Below are positions 51,172-62,568 of a stretch of DNA of 64,000 nt, piece by piece; within the stretch, counting starts at the first letter, position 1; each line of letters begins with the position of its first letter. Made by a program: the position numbers and the translations under genes. Origin of the DNA: Escherichia coli (GTDB lineage: Bacteria > Pseudomonadota > Gammaproteobacteria > Enterobacterales > Enterobacteriaceae); the NCBI RefSeq assembly GCF_022846255.1, contig NZ_AP025682.1, one strand, 5' to 3'. A model generated the notes under the pieces. It was not told the DNA's origin. It searched no databases and worked only from the letters and a program-made list of their open reading frames with translations.

Positions 51172-51186
51172 TGGTGTCCCCTGCAG
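51172..51186 (-). other. attR-type core: 15-nt copy of a tRNA-Arg (argW-type) 3' end (CTGCAGGGGACACCA on the minus strand)
   Basis: Exact match to acceptor-stem 3' strand plus CCA of argW as I recall that sequence; lies at the chromosome/prophage junction. Confidence 0.6.
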
Positions 51187-51259: not shown

Positions 51260-51460
51260 TTACCCATTGGCGCGGCTTAAGAGCTTATTTTTGAATTCAC
51301 AATGGTCACGATATAACCATCTTGCTCTCCCGTGGATAACTTTGGCTTTTGGCAGGTCGCCGGACTTAATCCGGTCATAGATGAAGGTTTTACCGAAGCC
51401 AGTATCGGCCATGATGAATTTCAAATCAACCAGTGAATCAGGTTGTAGTTCGTGTTGCAT
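51260..51460 (-). CDS. torI: TorI-type excisionase / recombination directionality factor (66 aa)
   Basis: 66-aa ORF MQHELQPDSLVDLKFIMADTGFGKTFIYDRIKSGDLPKAKVIHGRARWLYRDHCEFKNKLLSRANG; matches my recollection of TorI, and is an AlpA/Xis-like winged-helix protein. Confidence 0.8.
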   Translation of the reverse strand: MQHELQPDSLVDLKFIMADTGFGKTFIYDRIKSGDLPKAKVIHGRARWLYRDHCEFKNKLLSRANG

Positions 51461-52124: not shown

Positions 52125-52266
52125 TTATCATCTCCATAAAACAAAACTCGCCGTAGCGAGTTCAGATAAAAGAAATCCCCGCGAGGGCGGGGATGTTAAG
52201 TCGGTGGGGGTACAGTATGGATATCGAAAATTATTGCGCGATTCTCATTACTCCCCTGGGAAAACA

Positions 52267-52725
52267 TTATCTGGCAAGCATACGTTGTTGATGCTGTTTC
52301 ACAACACGTAAACGTAAGCTGTCATAGGCCCAATTGTAGAACATGGTATATGGTAGAAAGAAAAGGAAGAATCCTATCTCTAGTGTAAAAGCCTGTAACA
52401 GACTGACGCTCAGAATCCAGGACACCATAATGACGCCGATCGCGATAAATCCACTTTCAAAGCCCAAAGCATGGAATGCACGAACTTTTGCAGTTCGTTT
52501 TACCTGATGAGCAGGCCAGTAGCGATCAAATAGCATGTTATAGATGATATTCCAGATCATTGCAGTTGAAGCCAACAAGATAGTCATCCCGCCCATTTCG
52601 AGTATAGTTCGCTGCATTAACCATGCTGTGGTGGGGGCCAGAATCGCAGTGGCAATTCCTTCAAAGCAAATAGCGTGAAAAATACGCTCAAGTAACGATC
52701 TGTGTTGAATCGCATTATGTTGCAT
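52267..52725 (-). CDS. PACE-family efflux protein (AceI-like; two tandem bacterial-transmembrane-pair repeats)
   Basis: 152 aa, four predicted TM helices, with the signature repeated once per half: ERIFHAICFEG and VRAFHALGFESG (compare AceI RLIHAISYEG / VRILHAIGFEG). Confidence 0.8.
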   Translation of the reverse strand: MQHNAIQHRSLLERIFHAICFEGIATAILAPTTAWLMQRTILEMGGMTILLASTAMIWNIIYNMLFDRYWPAHQVKRTAKVRAFHALGFESGFIAIGVIMVSWILSVSLLQAFTLEIGFFLFFLPYTMFYNWAYDSLRLRVVKQHQQRMLAR

Positions 52726-52828
52726 AACTTACCTTTCTTACAGTTTCGACCGCGTTATGGAGTTGTGAGATTTTTATCGATTTATGTGATATATAAAAGA
52801 TAGATACCATCGAAAAAATTGATAGATT

Positions 52829-53713
52829 ATGCGTTACTCACTTGAAGCGTTAAGTACATTTGTTGAAGTGGTTTCCTGTGGCTCCTTTTCTGCTGCGGCA
52901 CGAAGATTACGTAAAAGTCAGTCCGCAGTCAGTACGTCAATTGCCAATCTTGAGGTCGATCTTGGTATATCATTATTCGATCGCTCTTCGCGAGAACCTG
53001 TGCTGACAGAGGAAGGAAAGAAAGTATTGAGTTACGTTCATGCGATTTTATCAGCCAGTGAACGTCTTGAGGAGGTGGCGGTTTCGCTTGCCGGAGAGAC
53101 TGAAGCTCGTCTGACGTTTGTGCTTTCCGATACCCTACACCCTGACTTATTAGAAGACATCATGGTGCAGTTTGATAGTCAGTTTCCACATACTGAGTTA
53201 GAGGTTTTAATTGGTGAGGATGTCGATGTCATCGATCTTTTGCAAAAAGAACGAGCGCAGATCGGCTTAATTGAGTCTCGGGAACACTACCCCACCGATA
53301 TTGGCTCAACCCGTTTACCGATGCAAGCGTGGATGGGCATTTATGTTTCGGCGTCACATCCACTGTCTGCAGAAAAAACAATCCAGCGGGAACAACTTCA
53401 TTCATGGCGAGAACTTCGTCTTAATACTTATATCGATAACCGGGAGATGATTGCCCGTGGACCGGTTTGGTCTGCACCTAACTATTTGTTGTTACTCAGT
53501 ATGGCCGTACAGGGATTTGGCTGGTGCTCTCTGCCCTGTGCTCTGGTTGAGGAGTTTGCAACAGAAAAACCGCTGGTTCAGCTCGACGTACCTGGCTGGC
53601 CAAAGGCAATTTCTATCGATCTGCTTTGGAATAAAAAATCGCCACCAGGCGCGGCTGGAAATTGGCTTAAGCATCATTTACAGCATATCAATGCCCCAAA
53701 TAGTCGAACTTAG
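52829..53713 (+). CDS. LysR-family transcriptional regulator (AceR-like), divergent from the PACE gene
   Basis: 294-aa ORF with N-terminal LysR HTH (LEALSTFVEVVSCGSFSAAARRLRKSQSAVSTSIANLE); 103-bp divergent intergenic region. Confidence 0.8.
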   Translation: MRYSLEALSTFVEVVSCGSFSAAARRLRKSQSAVSTSIANLEVDLGISLFDRSSREPVLTEEGKKVLSYVHAILSASERLEEVAVSLAGETEARLTFVLSDTLHPDLLEDIMVQFDSQFPHTELEVLIGEDVDVIDLLQKERAQIGLIESREHYPTDIGSTRLPMQAWMGIYVSASHPLSAEKTIQREQLHSWRELRLNTYIDNREMIARGPVWSAPNYLLLLSMAVQGFGWCSLPCALVEEFATEKPLVQLDVPGWPKAISIDLLWNKKSPPGAAGNWLKHHLQHINAPNSRT

Positions 53714-53834
53714 ATTAGTTAAAATATGGAATCCTGAAATAATCTCTGTTGATATGTGGAGCCATCTTCCAGGCTCCCACCTAAATCATGTTAGCAGTTC
53801 CATTTTTTTGATGATTTCCGCATGAGCATCATCG

Positions 53835-53918
53835 TTATCCCCAGCGACAAATTGAATACAAAACCAGTGCTACCGCCATTGCAATTCCTACCGTTGCGAA
53901 TGCTTCAGGCCAGCTCAT
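53835..53918 (-). CDS. hypothetical 27-aa hydrophobic peptide, start overlaps the stop of the upstream gene
   Basis: ATGA overlap with the 214-aa gene; encodes MSWPEAFATVGIAMAVALVLYSICRWG (single predicted TM helix). Confidence 0.25.
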   Translation of the reverse strand: MSWPEAFATVGIAMAVALVLYSICRWG

Positions 53919-54559
53919 TGATTCACCTCCTGCGGCGGTTCTGGTAGTGGTATCCAGAACAAGGCGTTCCCTAACCACGATAAAGTGCCGTCGCTCAACT
54001 CCACGTATTCCCCTTGCACCTGTCCTGCCATATACTCACCGTGCTTTGAATAAATTAAAATCCAATCATCTTGAGCGGGCATTCGCTCACTACAGCTTAT
54101 CCAACCACCCGGAGTTACCGGAGAGTTGCCGCGTTCTTTAATGTGCAAGCGAGGCTCACCATCTTTTGGTTCAGGCCACTGGCGCTCCATGTTGATCTTC
54201 AATTTATCTTCCATAGCAGCGGTAATTTCAGCATCGCTGATGCCAGCACGGCGCTGTGCATCCCACAACAGGAACTGCATATCAGCCCACTCGCTGAGAT
54301 CGTCTGGTTCGGCTGCGGCTTCCAGAGCCTCTTTTGAGAGGTGTTTCAGTGGACCAATGGGGCCAACGCAGCCAAATGTGGAGTCAGACCATTTGGCATG
54401 CTCGTGGCGAATCTGTTCGCGTTCCAGTGAGGCGAGAGCGATTTTAAATGCTGTAAGCATGTGTGCTTGATCGTTGTCGAGTCCGAATGGCATTTCATCT
54501 CGTGCTGACTCAATACTGGTAATCGTATTTTGTAGCCATTCTTTGGTAAAAGTGCTCAT
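53915..54559 (-). CDS. prophage protein with MazG-like nucleotide pyrophosphohydrolase N-terminal domain (DUF550-like) and DUF551-like C-terminal domain
   Basis: 214-aa ORF; N-terminal acidic helices (EALEAAAEPDDLSEWADMQFLLWDAQRR) and C-terminal DUF551-like segment; common in enterobacterial prophages. Confidence 0.55.
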   Translation of the reverse strand: MSTFTKEWLQNTITSIESARDEMPFGLDNDQAHMLTAFKIALASLEREQIRHEHAKWSDSTFGCVGPIGPLKHLSKEALEAAAEPDDLSEWADMQFLLWDAQRRAGISDAEITAAMEDKLKINMERQWPEPKDGEPRLHIKERGNSPVTPGGWISCSERMPAQDDWILIYSKHGEYMAGQVQGEYVELSDGTLSWLGNALFWIPLPEPPQEVNQ

Positions 54560-61171: not shown

Positions 61172-61869
61172 AAAACATCGCCGCACAGATGGTTAACTTT
61201 GACCGTGAGCAGATGCGCCGGATCGCCAACAATATGCCGGAACAGTACGACGAAAAGCCGCACGTACAGCAGGTAGCGCAGATCATCAATGGTGTGTTCA
61301 GCCAGTTACTGGCAACTTTCCCTGCGAGCCTGGCTAACCGGGATCAGAACGAACTGAACGAAATCCGCCGCCAGTGGGTTCTGGCTTTCCGGGAAAACGG
61401 GATCACCACAATGGAACAGGTTAACGCAGGAATGCGCGTAGCCCGTCGGCAGAATCGACCATTCCTGCCATCACCCGGGCAGTTTGTTGCCTGGTGCCGG
61501 GAAGAAACATCCGTTACCGCCGGGCTGCCAAACGCCAGCGAGCTGGTTGATATGGTTTACGAGTATTGCCGGAAGCGTGGCCTGTATCCGGACGCAGAGT
61601 CTTATCCATGGAAATCAAACGCGCACTACTGGCTGGTTACCAACCTGTACCAGAACATGCGGGCCAATGCGCTGACTGACGCGGAATTACGGCGTAAAGC
61701 TGCCGATGAGCTGACCTGTATGACCGCGCGAATTAACCGTGGTGAGGCGATACCTGAACCAGTAAAACAACTTCCTGTCATGGGCGGTAGACCTCTAAAT
61801 CGTGCACAGGCTCTGGCGAAGATCGCAGAAATCAAAGCTAAGTTTGGGCTGAAAGGAGCAAGGGTATGA
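61168..61869 (+). CDS. P: replication protein P (DnaB helicase loader)
   Basis: 233-aa ORF near-identical to lambda P; start overlaps O. Confidence 0.92.
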   Translation: MKNIAAQMVNFDREQMRRIANNMPEQYDEKPHVQQVAQIINGVFSQLLATFPASLANRDQNELNEIRRQWVLAFRENGITTMEQVNAGMRVARRQNRPFLPSPGQFVAWCREETSVTAGLPNASELVDMVYEYCRKRGLYPDAESYPWKSNAHYWLVTNLYQNMRANALTDAELRRKAADELTCMTARINRGEAIPEPVKQLPVMGGRPLNRAQALAKIAEIKAKFGLKGARV

Positions 61870-62168
61870 CGGGCAAAGAGGCAATTATTCATTACCTGGG
61901 GACTCATAAGAACTTCTGTGCGCAGGACGTTGCCGTGGTAACAGGCGCAACCGTAACCAGCATAAATCAGGCTGCGGCTAAAATGGCACGGGCAGGTCTT
62001 CTGGTTATCGAAGGTAAGGTCTGGCGAACGGTGTATTACCGGTTTGCTACCAGGGAAGAACGGGAAGGAAAGATGAGCACGAACCTGATTTTTAAGGAGT
62101 GTCGCCAGAGTGCCGCGATGAAACGGGTATTGAGGGTATATAAAAGAACATCAATGGGTACACAATGA
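61866..62168 (+). CDS. ren: Ren protein (100 aa)
   Basis: Near-identical to lambda Ren (MTGKEAIIHYLGTH...); start overlaps P. Confidence 0.85.
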   Translation: MTGKEAIIHYLGTHKNFCAQDVAVVTGATVTSINQAAAKMARAGLLVIEGKVWRTVYYRFATREEREGKMSTNLIFKECRQSAAMKRVLRVYKRTSMGTQ

Positions 62169-62235: not shown

Positions 62236-62568
62236 ATGAATCCTTATATTTATCTTGGTGGTGCAATACTTGCAGAGGTCATTGGTACAACCTTAATGAA
62301 GTTTTCAGAAGGTTTTACACGGTTATGGCCATCTGTTGGTACAATTATTTGTTATTGTGCATCATTCTGGTTATTAGCTCAGACGCTGGCTTATATTCCT
62401 ACAGGGATTGCTTATGCTATCTGGTCAGGAGTCGGTATTGTCCTGATTAGCTTACTATCATGGGGATTTTTCGGCCAACGGCTGGACCTGCCAGCTATTA
62501 TAGGCATGATGTTGATTTGTGCCGGTGTGTTGGTTATTAATTTATTTTCACGAAGCACACCACATTAA
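62236..62568 (+). CDS. emrE: SMR-family multidrug efflux protein EmrE (110 aa)
   Basis: MNPYIYLGGAILAEVIGTTLMKFSEGF... with the conserved Glu14; track ORF 62182..62568 trimmed to this Met. Confidence 0.9.
   Translation: MNPYIYLGGAILAEVIGTTLMKFSEGFTRLWPSVGTIICYCASFWLLAQTLAYIPTGIAYAIWSGVGIVLISLLSWGFFGQRLDLPAIIGMMLICAGVLVINLFSRSTPH

Follow-up and report, generated by a model that had tools for sequence, protein, structure and literature searches.

Results

Organization of the PACE/LysR locus

In the window analyzed here (the whole 64,000-nucleotide stretch of Escherichia coli contig NZ_AP025682.1, assembly GCF_022846255.1), a PACE-family transporter gene and a divergently oriented LysR-type regulator gene were located about 1.1 kb from the end of a lambdoid E. 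coli prophage. The pair, the cassette that carries it and the surrounding prophage features are summarized in Table 1.

Table 1. Features of the PACE/LysR cassette and its prophage surroundings, in window coordinates
Feature	Position	Strand	Basis or remark
att core CTGCAGGGGACACCA	51172-51186	-	copy of tRNA-Arg argW 3' end; left end of prophage
torI-type excisionase gene (xis)	51260-51460	-	phrog_66
small phage gene, 114 aa	51585-51929	-	phrog_1229, E 1.9e-51; backbone left of cassette
small phage gene, 55 aa	51957-52124	-	phrog_676, E 2.1e-38; backbone left of cassette
tandem pair of terminator-like hairpins, each with a trailing T-run	52144-52194	-	3' of PACE gene; backbone DNA
cargo cassette, 1,723 bp	52199-53921	.	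PACE gene, control region, LysR gene and short flanks
PACE-family transporter gene, 152 aa	52267-52725	-	two BTP domains, TM1 glutamate E22; Pfam, NCBIfam, motifs
divergent control region	52726-52828	.	conserved block of about 60 bp adjoining LysR start
LysR-type regulator gene, 294 aa	52829-53713	+	HTH_1, E 2e-20; LysR_substrate, E 1.9e-20
early-left gene, DUF551 / dATP-dGTP pyrophosphohydrolase-domain	53915-54559	-	PHROG matches; PGAP names in two other loci
emrE copy in same prophage	62236-62568		directly after ren

The transporter

A Pfam scan of the 152-aa protein returned two BTP (PF05232) domains, at residues 9-71 (E 2.2e-22) and 77-140 (E 2.1e-21), each of which spanned all 64 positions of the model. 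The PACE motifs RxxhaxxfE, WNxx(y/f)NxxFd, RxxHaxxFe and Ytxx(f/y)nwxyD, in which the TM1 Glu and the TM4 Asp are universal (PMC6195760), were present as motif 1A (R14-E22, RIFHAICFE), motif 2A in TM2 (W58-D67, WNIIYNMLFD), motif 1B (R82-E90, RAFHALGFE) and motif 2B in TM4 (Y126-D135, YTMFYNWAYD), with the motif residues unchanged across 12 orthologs. The protein also scored above the NCBIfam cut-offs for PACE_transport (NF033664; 169.8 bits, cut-off 80) and for the multidrug/biocide efflux PACE transporter (NF033665; 205.6 bits, cut-off 165). Against the AceI equivalog NF033663 it reached 93 bits, below the cut-off of 180, in an alignment of full length (residues 13-140 against positions 6-133 of the 136 in the model). 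The PDB contained no solved homolog detectable by sequence. The AlphaFold model (mean pLDDT 84.4) predicted four long helices at residues 11-37, 41-69, 79-105 and 109-151, with which the hydropathy peaks agreed. Judged from its sequence, the 152-aa protein is a member of the PACE family. Both reading frames were found precisely where the earlier note on this DNA had placed them, and the two signature strings that it quoted correspond to motifs 1A and 1B. The note, which had read a duplicated PACE signature and four transmembrane helices from the letters, was borne out by the domains, motifs and profile scores and, as far as the model goes, by the predicted helices; neither a lack of PF05232 matches nor a topology at odds with two BTP repeats was encountered.

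The regulator and the divergent control region

The PACE and LysR genes are separated by a spacer of 103 bp (52726-52828), and the same divergent arrangement is kept in 79 of 80 species loci, with a median spacer of 101 bp. Across 79 species, the identity of the LysR protein to its orthologs follows that of its PACE partner, and according to PMC4406071 every PACE gene studied had a LysR-type neighbor. The regulator has the complete architecture of its class, with HTH_1 at the N terminus and LysR_substrate at the C terminus. The top NCBIfam match of the regulator was AceR (NF052373; 129.7 bits over residues 5-286, E 1.4e-37), the score falling short of the equivalog cut-off of 500 bits, and the second named LysR family was YeiE (E 1.9e-28).

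The alignment of 20 intergenic regions revealed a block of about 60 bp conserved from Yersinia to the phage copy, with the consensus TATCtA.TTTaTCGATGG.ttcTAtcTTt.A..TATCa...CgATaAaA, which holds an ATCGAT palindrome and repeated TATC/GATA half-sites. The block also includes a putative -10 element that resembles TAAAAT and precedes the PACE start codon by about 45 nt. The aceI promoter likewise has a TAAAAT -10 element together with a poor -35 element, and requires AceR for its activation (PMC5961012); the putative PACE promoter in the window appears to be weak in the same manner. This spacer block is a candidate LysR operator and promoter. A generic sigma-70 promoter scan returned sites no more frequently than expected by chance.

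The earlier note had likened the pair to aceI/aceR of Acinetobacter. With respect to architecture the likeness held, since the window pair shares with AceI/AceR of Acinetobacter baumannii the tandem BTP domains, the TM1 Glu, the divergent LysR gene and, putatively, a weak promoter with a TAAAAT-type -10 element. With respect to orthology it did not, as both proteins scored below the equivalog cut-offs (93 of 180 bits and 129.7 of 500 bits), and the transfer of substrates from AceI to the window protein is therefore weak. In contrast to the window gene, aceI is a core chromosomal gene, and the substrates of its product include chlorhexidine, cadaverine and putrescine.

Prophage boundaries

The att core lies 100 bp past the stop codon of dsdC and had one exact match in the window, as compared with none in 100 shuffles. 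In related genomes the argW tRNA marks the opposite end of the element; no argW gene was found in the window. The excisionase encoded next to the att core is 100% identical to proteins named TorI by PGAP in four related loci, and the phrog_1229 and phrog_676 genes were both found in prophages devoid of the cassette as well. A terminator scan yielded seven sites where 1.7 were expected. Two of the seven, 52194-52175 and 52163-52144, correspond to the hairpins 3' of the PACE gene, and none was detected 3' of the LysR gene. The stretch carrying the hairpins (52140-52198) is common to about 2,200 E. coli genomes without the PACE/LysR module. On the right, the cassette is followed by the DUF551/pyrophosphohydrolase-domain gene, which is frequently cut down in prophage remnants, and the prophage order continues with TraR, exo, bet, cI, cII, O, P and ren. 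The pair is prophage cargo that lies inside the phage boundaries with phage genes on both sides, in agreement with its earlier placement within a prophage.

The cassette and its distribution

Homology to module-free prophages ends at position 52198 and restarts at about 53922-54078, and the DNA in between aligned with 21 other copies without gaps, at an identity of at least 99.5% and with 14 polymorphic sites. The corresponding slot of other lambdoid prophages is occupied by ASCH, DUF4752 or DUF551 genes. Copies of the cassette reside in E. coli and E. albertii prophages or prophage remnants inserted at argW, thrW, torS and ybhC, and different integrases accompany them at these four att sites in the two species. 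The proposal that the module could be mobilized by lysogeny is supported indirectly by this recurrence of an at least 99.5% identical cassette.

The module was detected in 13 of 5,426 complete E. coli genomes (0.24%), and among the 12 carriers examined (all but H43 of the 13) it lay within prophage DNA in every case; occurrence at the same position in most E. coli genomes irrespective of any prophage, the finding that would have counted against phage-borne cargo, was thus not seen. None of these 12 carriers combined dsdC directly beside torI with an extended early region. The two commonest protein variants were found in more than 1,400 public contigs.

Most cassette copies are located in truncated, non-mobile prophage remnants, whereas the prophage of carrier VCSW7, at the torS site, appears complete. 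The argW remnants have one deletion junction in common, at which a truncated pyrophosphohydrolase gene is joined to a truncated intS, and the thrW copies likewise share one truncation; as most copies reside in remnants with the same deletions, they represent few independent contexts. In the argW remnants, nearly all of the phage is gone and the adjacent genes are pseudogenes, and the cassette is whole. The coding polymorphism over 21 copies amounted to 7 nonsynonymous and 3 synonymous differences, and this recent-phase variation showed no sign of purifying selection.

The module had also been described as more AT-rich than its neighbors, which proved true to a modest extent: its GC content is 44.3%, as compared with 47.2% in the prophage part and 48.4% in the host part of the window. 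The GC3 values of the PACE and LysR genes are 44% and 41%, respectively, against 62% for exo and 58% for bet. Some other phage accessory genes are as AT-rich, e.g., traR with a GC3 of 39%.

Searches of phage, plasmid and viral sequences

Searches of INPHARED by blastn and tblastn revealed no bona fide virion genome with the module. The matches obtained there were mislabelled bacterial contigs, namely a 691-kb contig of Salmonella houtenae and 'Acinetobacter phage MD-2021a' entries of up to 378 kb. A further match was an unannotated record of 2.4 kb. Among plasmids, nothing was matched except chromosomal-type orthologs (65-73% identity) whose replicons were large or misassigned. PHROGs contained no PACE family, and a PACE profile scan of the 2.9 million contigs of IMG/VR identified four copies of the cassette and one dubious locus. 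In this last locus, the PACE gene is 44% identical, comes after a lysis cassette and ahead of a DeoR regulator gene, and lacks a LysR partner; the locus is probably host flank.

Ancestry of the pair

In 57 of 81 species loci, yqeG and yqeF flank a chromosomal PACE/LysR pair, with no phage genes nearby. In E. coli, yqeG and yqeF are adjacent in 5,417 of 5,426 genomes with a spacer of 254 bp, in which no leftover of the pair was found. The chromosomal pairs of Enterobacteriaceae (Salmonella STY3166/STM14_3648, Klebsiella KPK_0842, Enterobacter Entcl_2273 and that of Citrobacter) are orthologous to the cassette genes and agree with them in their divergent orientation, spacer of about 100 bp, candidate operator block and PGAP name. 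They differ in being syntenic and GC-rich, whereas the cassette is prophage-borne, AT-shifted and found in a species with the ancestral slot empty. The GC3 of the chromosomal orthologs ranges from 57 to 82%, against 41-44% in the phage copy.

At the amino acid level, the PACE protein of the phage copy is 82% identical to its orthologs in both Citrobacter and Salmonella, and the LysR protein is 80% identical in the former and 77% in the latter. In a neighbor-joining tree without bootstrap support, the phage copy was placed on a long branch as the sister of Citrobacter plus Salmonella. The dN/dS ratio against the chromosomal orthologs was about 0.05, with synonymous sites saturated (pS 0.70-0.84), and this saturation makes dating of the capture from dS impossible.

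Discussion

Neither the pair with its family assignment nor its association with phage DNA is new: PGAP already names both genes, and the E. coli homolog with its phage flanks has been published (PMC4337561; PMC5840245). Hassan et al. (2015) cloned the E. coli PACE gene ECTW07793_0407 (EII93401) of strain TW07793, which gave acriflavine MICs of 6.25 against 3.125 for the vector and chlorhexidine MICs of 0.39-0.78 against 0.195-0.39, while the Salmonella ortholog STY3166 conferred no resistance at all (PMC4337561). Slipski et al. (2017) noted that ECTW07793_0407 is flanked by a transposase and phage sequences (PMC5840245). The encoded protein is probably the window PACE protein or nearly identical to it: its TM1 Glu corresponds to E22, it is listed beside STY3166 in the table of PMC4337561, and its flanks match the IS3 and prophage contexts of the cassette copies analyzed herein. 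Neither PMC4337561 nor PMC5840245 mentions the LysR partner, the position of the cassette in lambdoid prophages, its four att sites or the fact that the yqeG-yqeF slot is empty.

Taken together, we consider it likely that the module is a two-gene moron in the variable slot proximal to int/xis, comprising a PACE exporter and its LysR activator, and that it originated as a chromosomal pair which was captured and then spread by phage. The transporter would be a secondary transporter of two BTP hairpins with four TM helices, probably working as a dimer, which by homology may export cationic compounds in exchange for protons via the membrane-embedded E22. [quoted passage not shown] The most likely binding site of the regulator is the candidate operator block within the 103-bp spacer; by analogy with the action of AceR on aceI, the regulator would sense a substrate and activate the weak PACE promoter. 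As for origin, the cassette descends from the enterobacterial yqeG-yqeF pair that is missing there in E. coli. Its capture by phage probably occurred a single time, from a donor lineage whose distance to Salmonella and Citrobacter is about that of Escherichia, and was presumably followed by spread among lambdoid prophages through recombination and lysogeny. The data show what the module is, how it is built, where it lies, how it is distributed and from what it descends, whereas its substrates, its regulation and any benefit to the lysogen are inferred.

Several observations weigh against this account. MIC shifts for the probable counterpart were about 2-fold, STY3166 gave no resistance (PMC4337561), and STM14_3648 alone failed to restore the viability of Salmonella starved of Mg2+ (PMC9972920). 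Both proteins score below the AceI and AceR cut-offs, recent coding variation shows no sign of purifying selection, and the remnants offer few independent contexts. The terminators 3' of the PACE gene belong to the phage backbone, and the generic promoter scan did not exceed chance.

It is possible, although we doubt it, that the cassette is instead a neutral hitch-hiker, functional in appearance but irrelevant to selection, captured once and lasting because the att/xis end survives prophage decay, with no meaningful biocide or polyamine phenotype. The low prevalence (0.24%) is in line with such a course, as is the ratio of 7 nonsynonymous to 3 synonymous differences, which is close to the neutral expectation. 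Given an identity of at least 99.5% among all copies, intact cassettes would be expected even without selection, and the single argW junction and single thrW truncation mean that few independent retention events need be assumed. Moreover, what is probably the same protein shifted MICs only about 2-fold, and STY3166 did not shift them (PMC4337561). These points are, however, opposed by the long-term dN/dS of about 0.05 and the conservation of the candidate operator block. In addition, the argW remnants kept the cassette whole amid phage deletion and neighboring pseudogenes, and the two commonest variants recur in more than 1,400 public contigs.

A more ambitious and rather unlikely reading is that the cassette represents the only surviving form, in the Escherichia lineage, of the ancestral enterobacterial diamine/biocide exporter lost from the E. 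coli chromosome at yqeG-yqeF, which lambdoid phages would now resupply as a trait of lysogenic conversion and which would be selectively retained even as the remaining prophage decays. EmrE, a member of the SMR family known from the defective lambdoid prophage DLP12 of E. coli K-12, resembles the PACE transporter in being a small proton-coupled exporter of cations and biocides that is carried as lambdoid-prophage cargo. It differs in that it belongs to the SMR and not the PACE family, occupies the slot after ren (in DLP12 after renD) instead of that beside xis, and lacks a dedicated regulator. If this reading were true, lysogenic conversion by this particular prophage would supply two genes for cation efflux, PACE and emrE, and so raise tolerance to biocides or polyamines.

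We hold it to be highly improbable that the PACE product serves the phage itself, as a membrane protein acting in superinfection exclusion, depolarization or lysis timing and expressed by read-through from pL. Small membrane proteins in this lambdoid region often serve exclusion. The PACE gene shares its strand with exo, bet and the rest of the early-left region, and by virtue of this orientation N-antiterminated transcription from pL could reach it. Against such a role, all transport motifs, the cognate LysR gene and its candidate operator have been kept just as in the chromosomal orthologs, and transcription from pL runs antisense to the LysR gene. Phages, moreover, hardly carry PACE genes: PHROGs contains none, and the scan of 2.9 million IMG/VR contigs yielded only four copies of the cassette plus a single dubious locus.

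That the pair is merely host DNA abutting the prophage at dsdC/argW, as the proximity of the prophage end (about 1.1 kb), the typically chromosomal location of LysR/transporter pairs, the lack of a PACE family in PHROGs and the lack of an isolated phage genome with the module might suggest, was ruled out by the four-site distribution, i.e., the identical cassette with the same phage neighbors at thrW, torS and ybhC, and runs counter to the att core left of the pair, the excisionase and two PHROG genes in between, and the absence of the module from 5,413 of 5,426 complete genomes.

The phage-borne, captured module is our preferred account. The original observation was confirmed as real and correctly interpreted, and it is mostly ordinary. 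PACE pumps are usually core genes that are inherited vertically, and the 1.7-kb PACE/LysR cassette provides a concrete case of one PACE gene riding lambdoid prophages at no fewer than four att sites in two Escherichia species. With a weak phenotype to be expected and most copies stranded in remnants, this constitutes useful context rather than a surprise; for the surveillance of biocide resistance, it means that a PACE gene may in principle be moved by lysogeny.

Identity of the PACE–LysR pair

Both ORFs are present just as the earlier note had set them out, and the one that it had assigned to the PACE family was confirmed as a member by domains, motifs, and curated models alike. Pfam identified two complete BTP/PF05232 domains (residues 9-71, E 2.2e-22; residues 77-140, E 2.1e-21), and all four motifs defining the family (1A RxxhaxxfE, 2A WNxxy/fNxxFd, 1B RxxHaxxFe, and 2B Ytxxf/ynwxyD; 2018 review, PMC6195760) were present as R14-E22 RIFHAICFE, W58-D67 WNIIYNMLFD, R82-E90 RAFHALGFE, and Y126-D135 YTMFYNWAYD, unvarying across the aligned enterobacterial orthologs (n = 12). 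An AlphaFold model built on this 12-ortholog alignment (mean pLDDT 84.4) displayed four long helices (11-37, 41-69, 79-105, and 109-151); no solved structure related by sequence was found in the PDB. The protein scored above the NCBIfam cut-offs of NF033664 (PACE efflux transporter; 169.8 bits, cut-off 80) and NF033665 (multidrug/biocide efflux PACE transporter; 205.6 bits, cut-off 165). The transporter is thus already covered by a curated model, and PGAP names the two products "multidrug/biocide efflux PACE transporter" (WP_103253410.1) and "LysR family transcriptional regulator" (WP_105272112.1).

The pair had also been likened to aceI/aceR, the chromosomal PACE/LysR pair of Acinetobacter baumannii. 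The divergent layout, with a spacer of 103 bp, indeed corresponds to that of aceI/aceR, but the equivalog scores speak against orthology: the transporter fell well below the cut-off of the AceI equivalog NF033663 (93 against 180 bits), and the regulator, although its best named match was AceR (NF052373; 129.7 bits, residues 5-286, E 1.4e-37) ahead of YeiE (E 1.9e-28), remained far under the equivalog cut-off of 500 bits. The pair is therefore aceI/aceR-like in architecture, yet no AceI/AceR ortholog.

Features of the prophage region in the window
Feature	Position	Strand	Basis
att core, copy of tRNA-Arg argW 3' end, CTGCAGGGGACACCA	51172-51186		unique exact copy, 100 bp past dsdC
Terminator-like hairpin with T-run, downstream of PACE gene	52163-52144	minus	terminator scan
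Terminator-like hairpin with T-run, downstream of PACE gene	52194-52175	minus	terminator scan
PACE transporter gene, 152 aa	52267..52725	-	two BTP/PF05232 domains
LysR-type regulator gene, 294 aa	52829..53713	+	HTH_1 and LysR_substrate domains
emrE, SMR-family multidrug/QAC exporter	62236-62568	+	phrog_1395 "QacE", E 6.8e-58; translation begins MNPYIYLGGAILAEV
Esterase gene, 347 aa	62627-63670	-	phrog_3341, E 5.7e-129; GC3 37%, very low

Prophage setting and cassette boundaries

Host DNA with dsdA-dsdX-dsdC makes up the left of the window; dsdC was assigned from its sequence and its place on the K-12 map. The argW-derived element beyond it, matched in none of 100 shuffles, is the left-end att core of an argW-integrated prophage; the argW gene itself is absent from the window. 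To its right lie a TorI-type excisionase gene, a phrog_1229 gene, and a phrog_676 gene, then the cassette. Beyond the cassette stand a gene with a DUF551/pyrophosphohydrolase domain, ea22-like, TraR/DksA, exo, and bet, and farther right genes for a CI-like repressor and a CII-like activator, O, P, and ren. With the att core on one side and phage genes on both, the pair is thus some 1.1 kb within a lambdoid prophage. It belongs to the early-left arm, as the earlier note had stated, and there to the end nearest int/xis.

The cassette was delimited against module-free lambdoid prophages of E. coli ATCC 11303 (beside ybhC) and O157:H7 (beside sbcB). Backbone homology stops at 52198 and restarts at about 53922-54078, and in the module-free prophages the slot holds ASCH-, DUF4752-, or DUF551-domain genes. 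Of the 5,426 complete genomes of E. coli, 2,214 share the 59 bp that adjoin the cassette on the left. The two hairpins, from a scan that returned 7 terminator-like sites against 1.7 expected, belong to the shared backbone and so were not imported with the cassette. In the right flank, a 50-bp stretch (53790-53839) matches, at 98-100%, hypothetical-protein genes of E. coli plasmids about 95 kb in size (185 plasmid places).

The same prophage carries emrE directly 3' of ren (61866-62168), the position that emrE occupies after renD in DLP12 of K-12. One prophage therefore houses two small exporters of cations or biocides, each from a different family, whereas the prophage of VCSW7, another E. coli carrier of the cassette, has NinB after ren. 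Just past emrE, the esterase gene runs on the other strand and may likewise be cargo, in the nin-region slot.

Distribution among genomes

The pair was detected in 13 of 5,426 complete E. coli genomes, always on the chromosome and at an identity of at least 99.6%, and the 12 carriers inspected hold it in prophages or their remnants. This distribution supports prophage cargo, as the earlier note had proposed, over a module common to most E. coli genomes independently of any prophage. At argW/torI (5/12), tiny remnants begin with torI and two small genes, continue with PACE and LysR, and close with argW, which is preceded by a pyrophosphohydrolase gene and intS, both truncated and fused to each other; in one of the five, IS elements form the end instead. 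Beside proA-thrW (4/12), the pair sits behind a different integrase and IS3 in a prophage cut off after gam, and this same integrase and IS3 are found in two SC isolates. The remaining carrier, VCSW7, has an apparently complete lambdoid prophage with int and xis at torS, the fetched part of which runs through immunity, replication, nin, and lysis genes on to terminase and portal. Several of the argW carriers (L003, L004, L009, and L098; e.g., L003 3561-7226) have the prophage reduced to about 3.5 kb, with one common deletion junction and with csc sucrose genes in place of dsdC on the torI side.

A fourth att site and a second species were provided by Escherichia albertii, in which four contigs carry the cassette (99.8% identity; e.g., L101 1687-5184) behind lambda-type Int/Xis beside ybhC (pectinesterase). 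Over 21 copies, the 1,723 bp of 52199-53921 align gaplessly at 99.5% identity or above, with 14 polymorphic sites and both ORFs intact in every copy. The two commonest protein variants occur in 486 and 977 public contigs.

IMG/VR holds four cassette copies, and a profile scan of it for PACE genes gave one further locus, dubious and unrelated. This locus, in IMGVR_UViG_2751185936_000012 (L106 5992-6435), is a different PACE gene (147 aa, 44% identity). It immediately follows a lysis cassette near the margin of a contig with tail genes, has a DeoR-type regulator after it, and lacks a LysR partner; the gene probably represents host flank swept into the prophage call. The module was found neither in the collection of isolated phage genomes nor on plasmids, and PHROGs contains no PACE family. 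PACE matches in the phage collection (AGRM01000002.1, CAKLQF020000001.1, and others) were rejected as evidently bacterial contigs, among them one of Salmonella houtenae (691 kb) and several labeled "Acinetobacter phage MD-2021a" (up to 378 kb).

Ancestry and the empty chromosomal slot

With one genome sampled per species, 80 loci were recovered, the nearest from Citrobacter (78-83% aa), then Salmonella, Leclercia, Lelliottia, Enterobacter, and Kluyvera, and outward to Yersinia, Hafnia, and Serratia. LysR is the divergent neighbor in 79 of the 80 (median spacer 101 bp), its identity tracks that of PACE, and none of these loci has phage neighbor genes. In Enterobacteriaceae proper, the pair is flanked by genes for a yqeG-type permease and a yqeF-type thiolase, and kduI is close by (57/81 loci). 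In E. coli, yqeG is directly beside yqeF in 5,417 of 5,426 genomes with a spacer of 254 bp, in which no remnant of the pair was detected (VCSW7 spacer, L097 2109-2362). About 100 bp at the center of that VCSW7 spacer have no match in Salmonella or Citrobacter.

In a neighbor-joining tree of concatenated PACE and LysR proteins, calculated without bootstrap, the topology follows the species tree, and the E. coli/prophage copy forms a long branch sister to Citrobacter plus Salmonella. Against Salmonella, dN was 0.107 for PACE and 0.145 for LysR of the phage copy, and 0.074 for yqeG and 0.054 for yqeF of E. coli; the corresponding Citrobacter–Salmonella values were 0.066, 0.101, 0.059, and 0.054. 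Synonymous sites were saturated in every comparison (dN/dS about 0.05). GC3 was 44% in the PACE gene and 41% in the LysR gene, as against 57-82% in chromosomal orthologs. The simplest reading of these comparisons would be a single old capture from a donor lineage whose distance from Salmonella is about that of Escherichia, followed by AT drift within phage genomes and by recent spread among lambdoid prophages.

Evidence for selection on the cassette is mixed. The long-term dN/dS, a conserved predicted operator, and the intactness of the cassette in remnants whose neighboring genes are pseudogenes speak for it; against it, recent coding polymorphisms in the 21 copies are 7 nonsynonymous to 3 synonymous, deletion junctions are common to the remnants within each site, so that independent events are few, and intact ORFs would be expected even without selection because divergence is at most 0.5%.

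Predicted control and function

Alignment of 20 intergenic regions revealed a conserved block of about 60 bp adjoining the LysR start, from Yersinia through to the phage copy (consensus TATCtA.TTTaTCGATGG.ttcTAtcTTt.A..TATCa...CgATaAaA). The block includes the palindrome ATCGAT, repeated TATC/GATA, and, some 45 nt upstream of the ATG of PACE, an element resembling TAAAAT. The aceI promoter has a TAAAAT -10, a poor -35, and two upstream AceR sites, and is switched on by ligand-bound AceR (PMC5961012). By analogy, LysR may activate the PACE promoter in a ligand-dependent manner from a putative operator in the spacer. Read-through from pL on induction is also possible, because the PACE gene shares the orientation of the early-left operon.

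By homology, the PACE protein would be a proton-coupled exporter of cationic compounds. Hassan et al. (2015; PMC4337561) cloned ECTW07793_0407, a PACE protein of E. coli TW07793, and recorded MICs, relative to the vector, of 0.39-0.78 versus 0.195-0.39 for chlorhexidine, 6.25 versus 3.125 for acriflavine, and 6.25-12.5 versus 6.25 for proflavine; the Salmonella ortholog STY3166 raised the MIC of none of the compounds tested. The TM1 glutamate of this protein (EII93401) is E22 (Slipski et al., 2017; PMC5840245), as in the window's protein, and its flanks, described as transposase and phage sequences, fit the IS3/prophage contexts; it is therefore very probably the same gene. Cadaverine and putrescine are reported as natural substrates of AceI (as cited in PMC8458285). 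The Salmonella ortholog STM14_3648 was handled as a putative diamine pump and did not alone sustain viability under Mg2+ starvation (PMC9972920).

The interpretation of the earlier note is thus supported, and the PACE/LysR prophage cassette is real and already known: an association of the E. coli gene with phage and transposase was mentioned in 2017 (Slipski et al., PMC5840245), and the low frequency of PACE genes published for E. coli (at most 0.2% of 1,986 strains; 2015 and 2018) is consistent with that found here. Without changing its nature, the present analysis adds the exact boundaries of the cassette, its lambdoid slot, and four att sites in two species, together with the absence of the pair from its ancestral yqeG-yqeF slot in E. 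coli, the deep branch and AT shift of the phage copy, and the co-carriage of emrE in the window's prophage.
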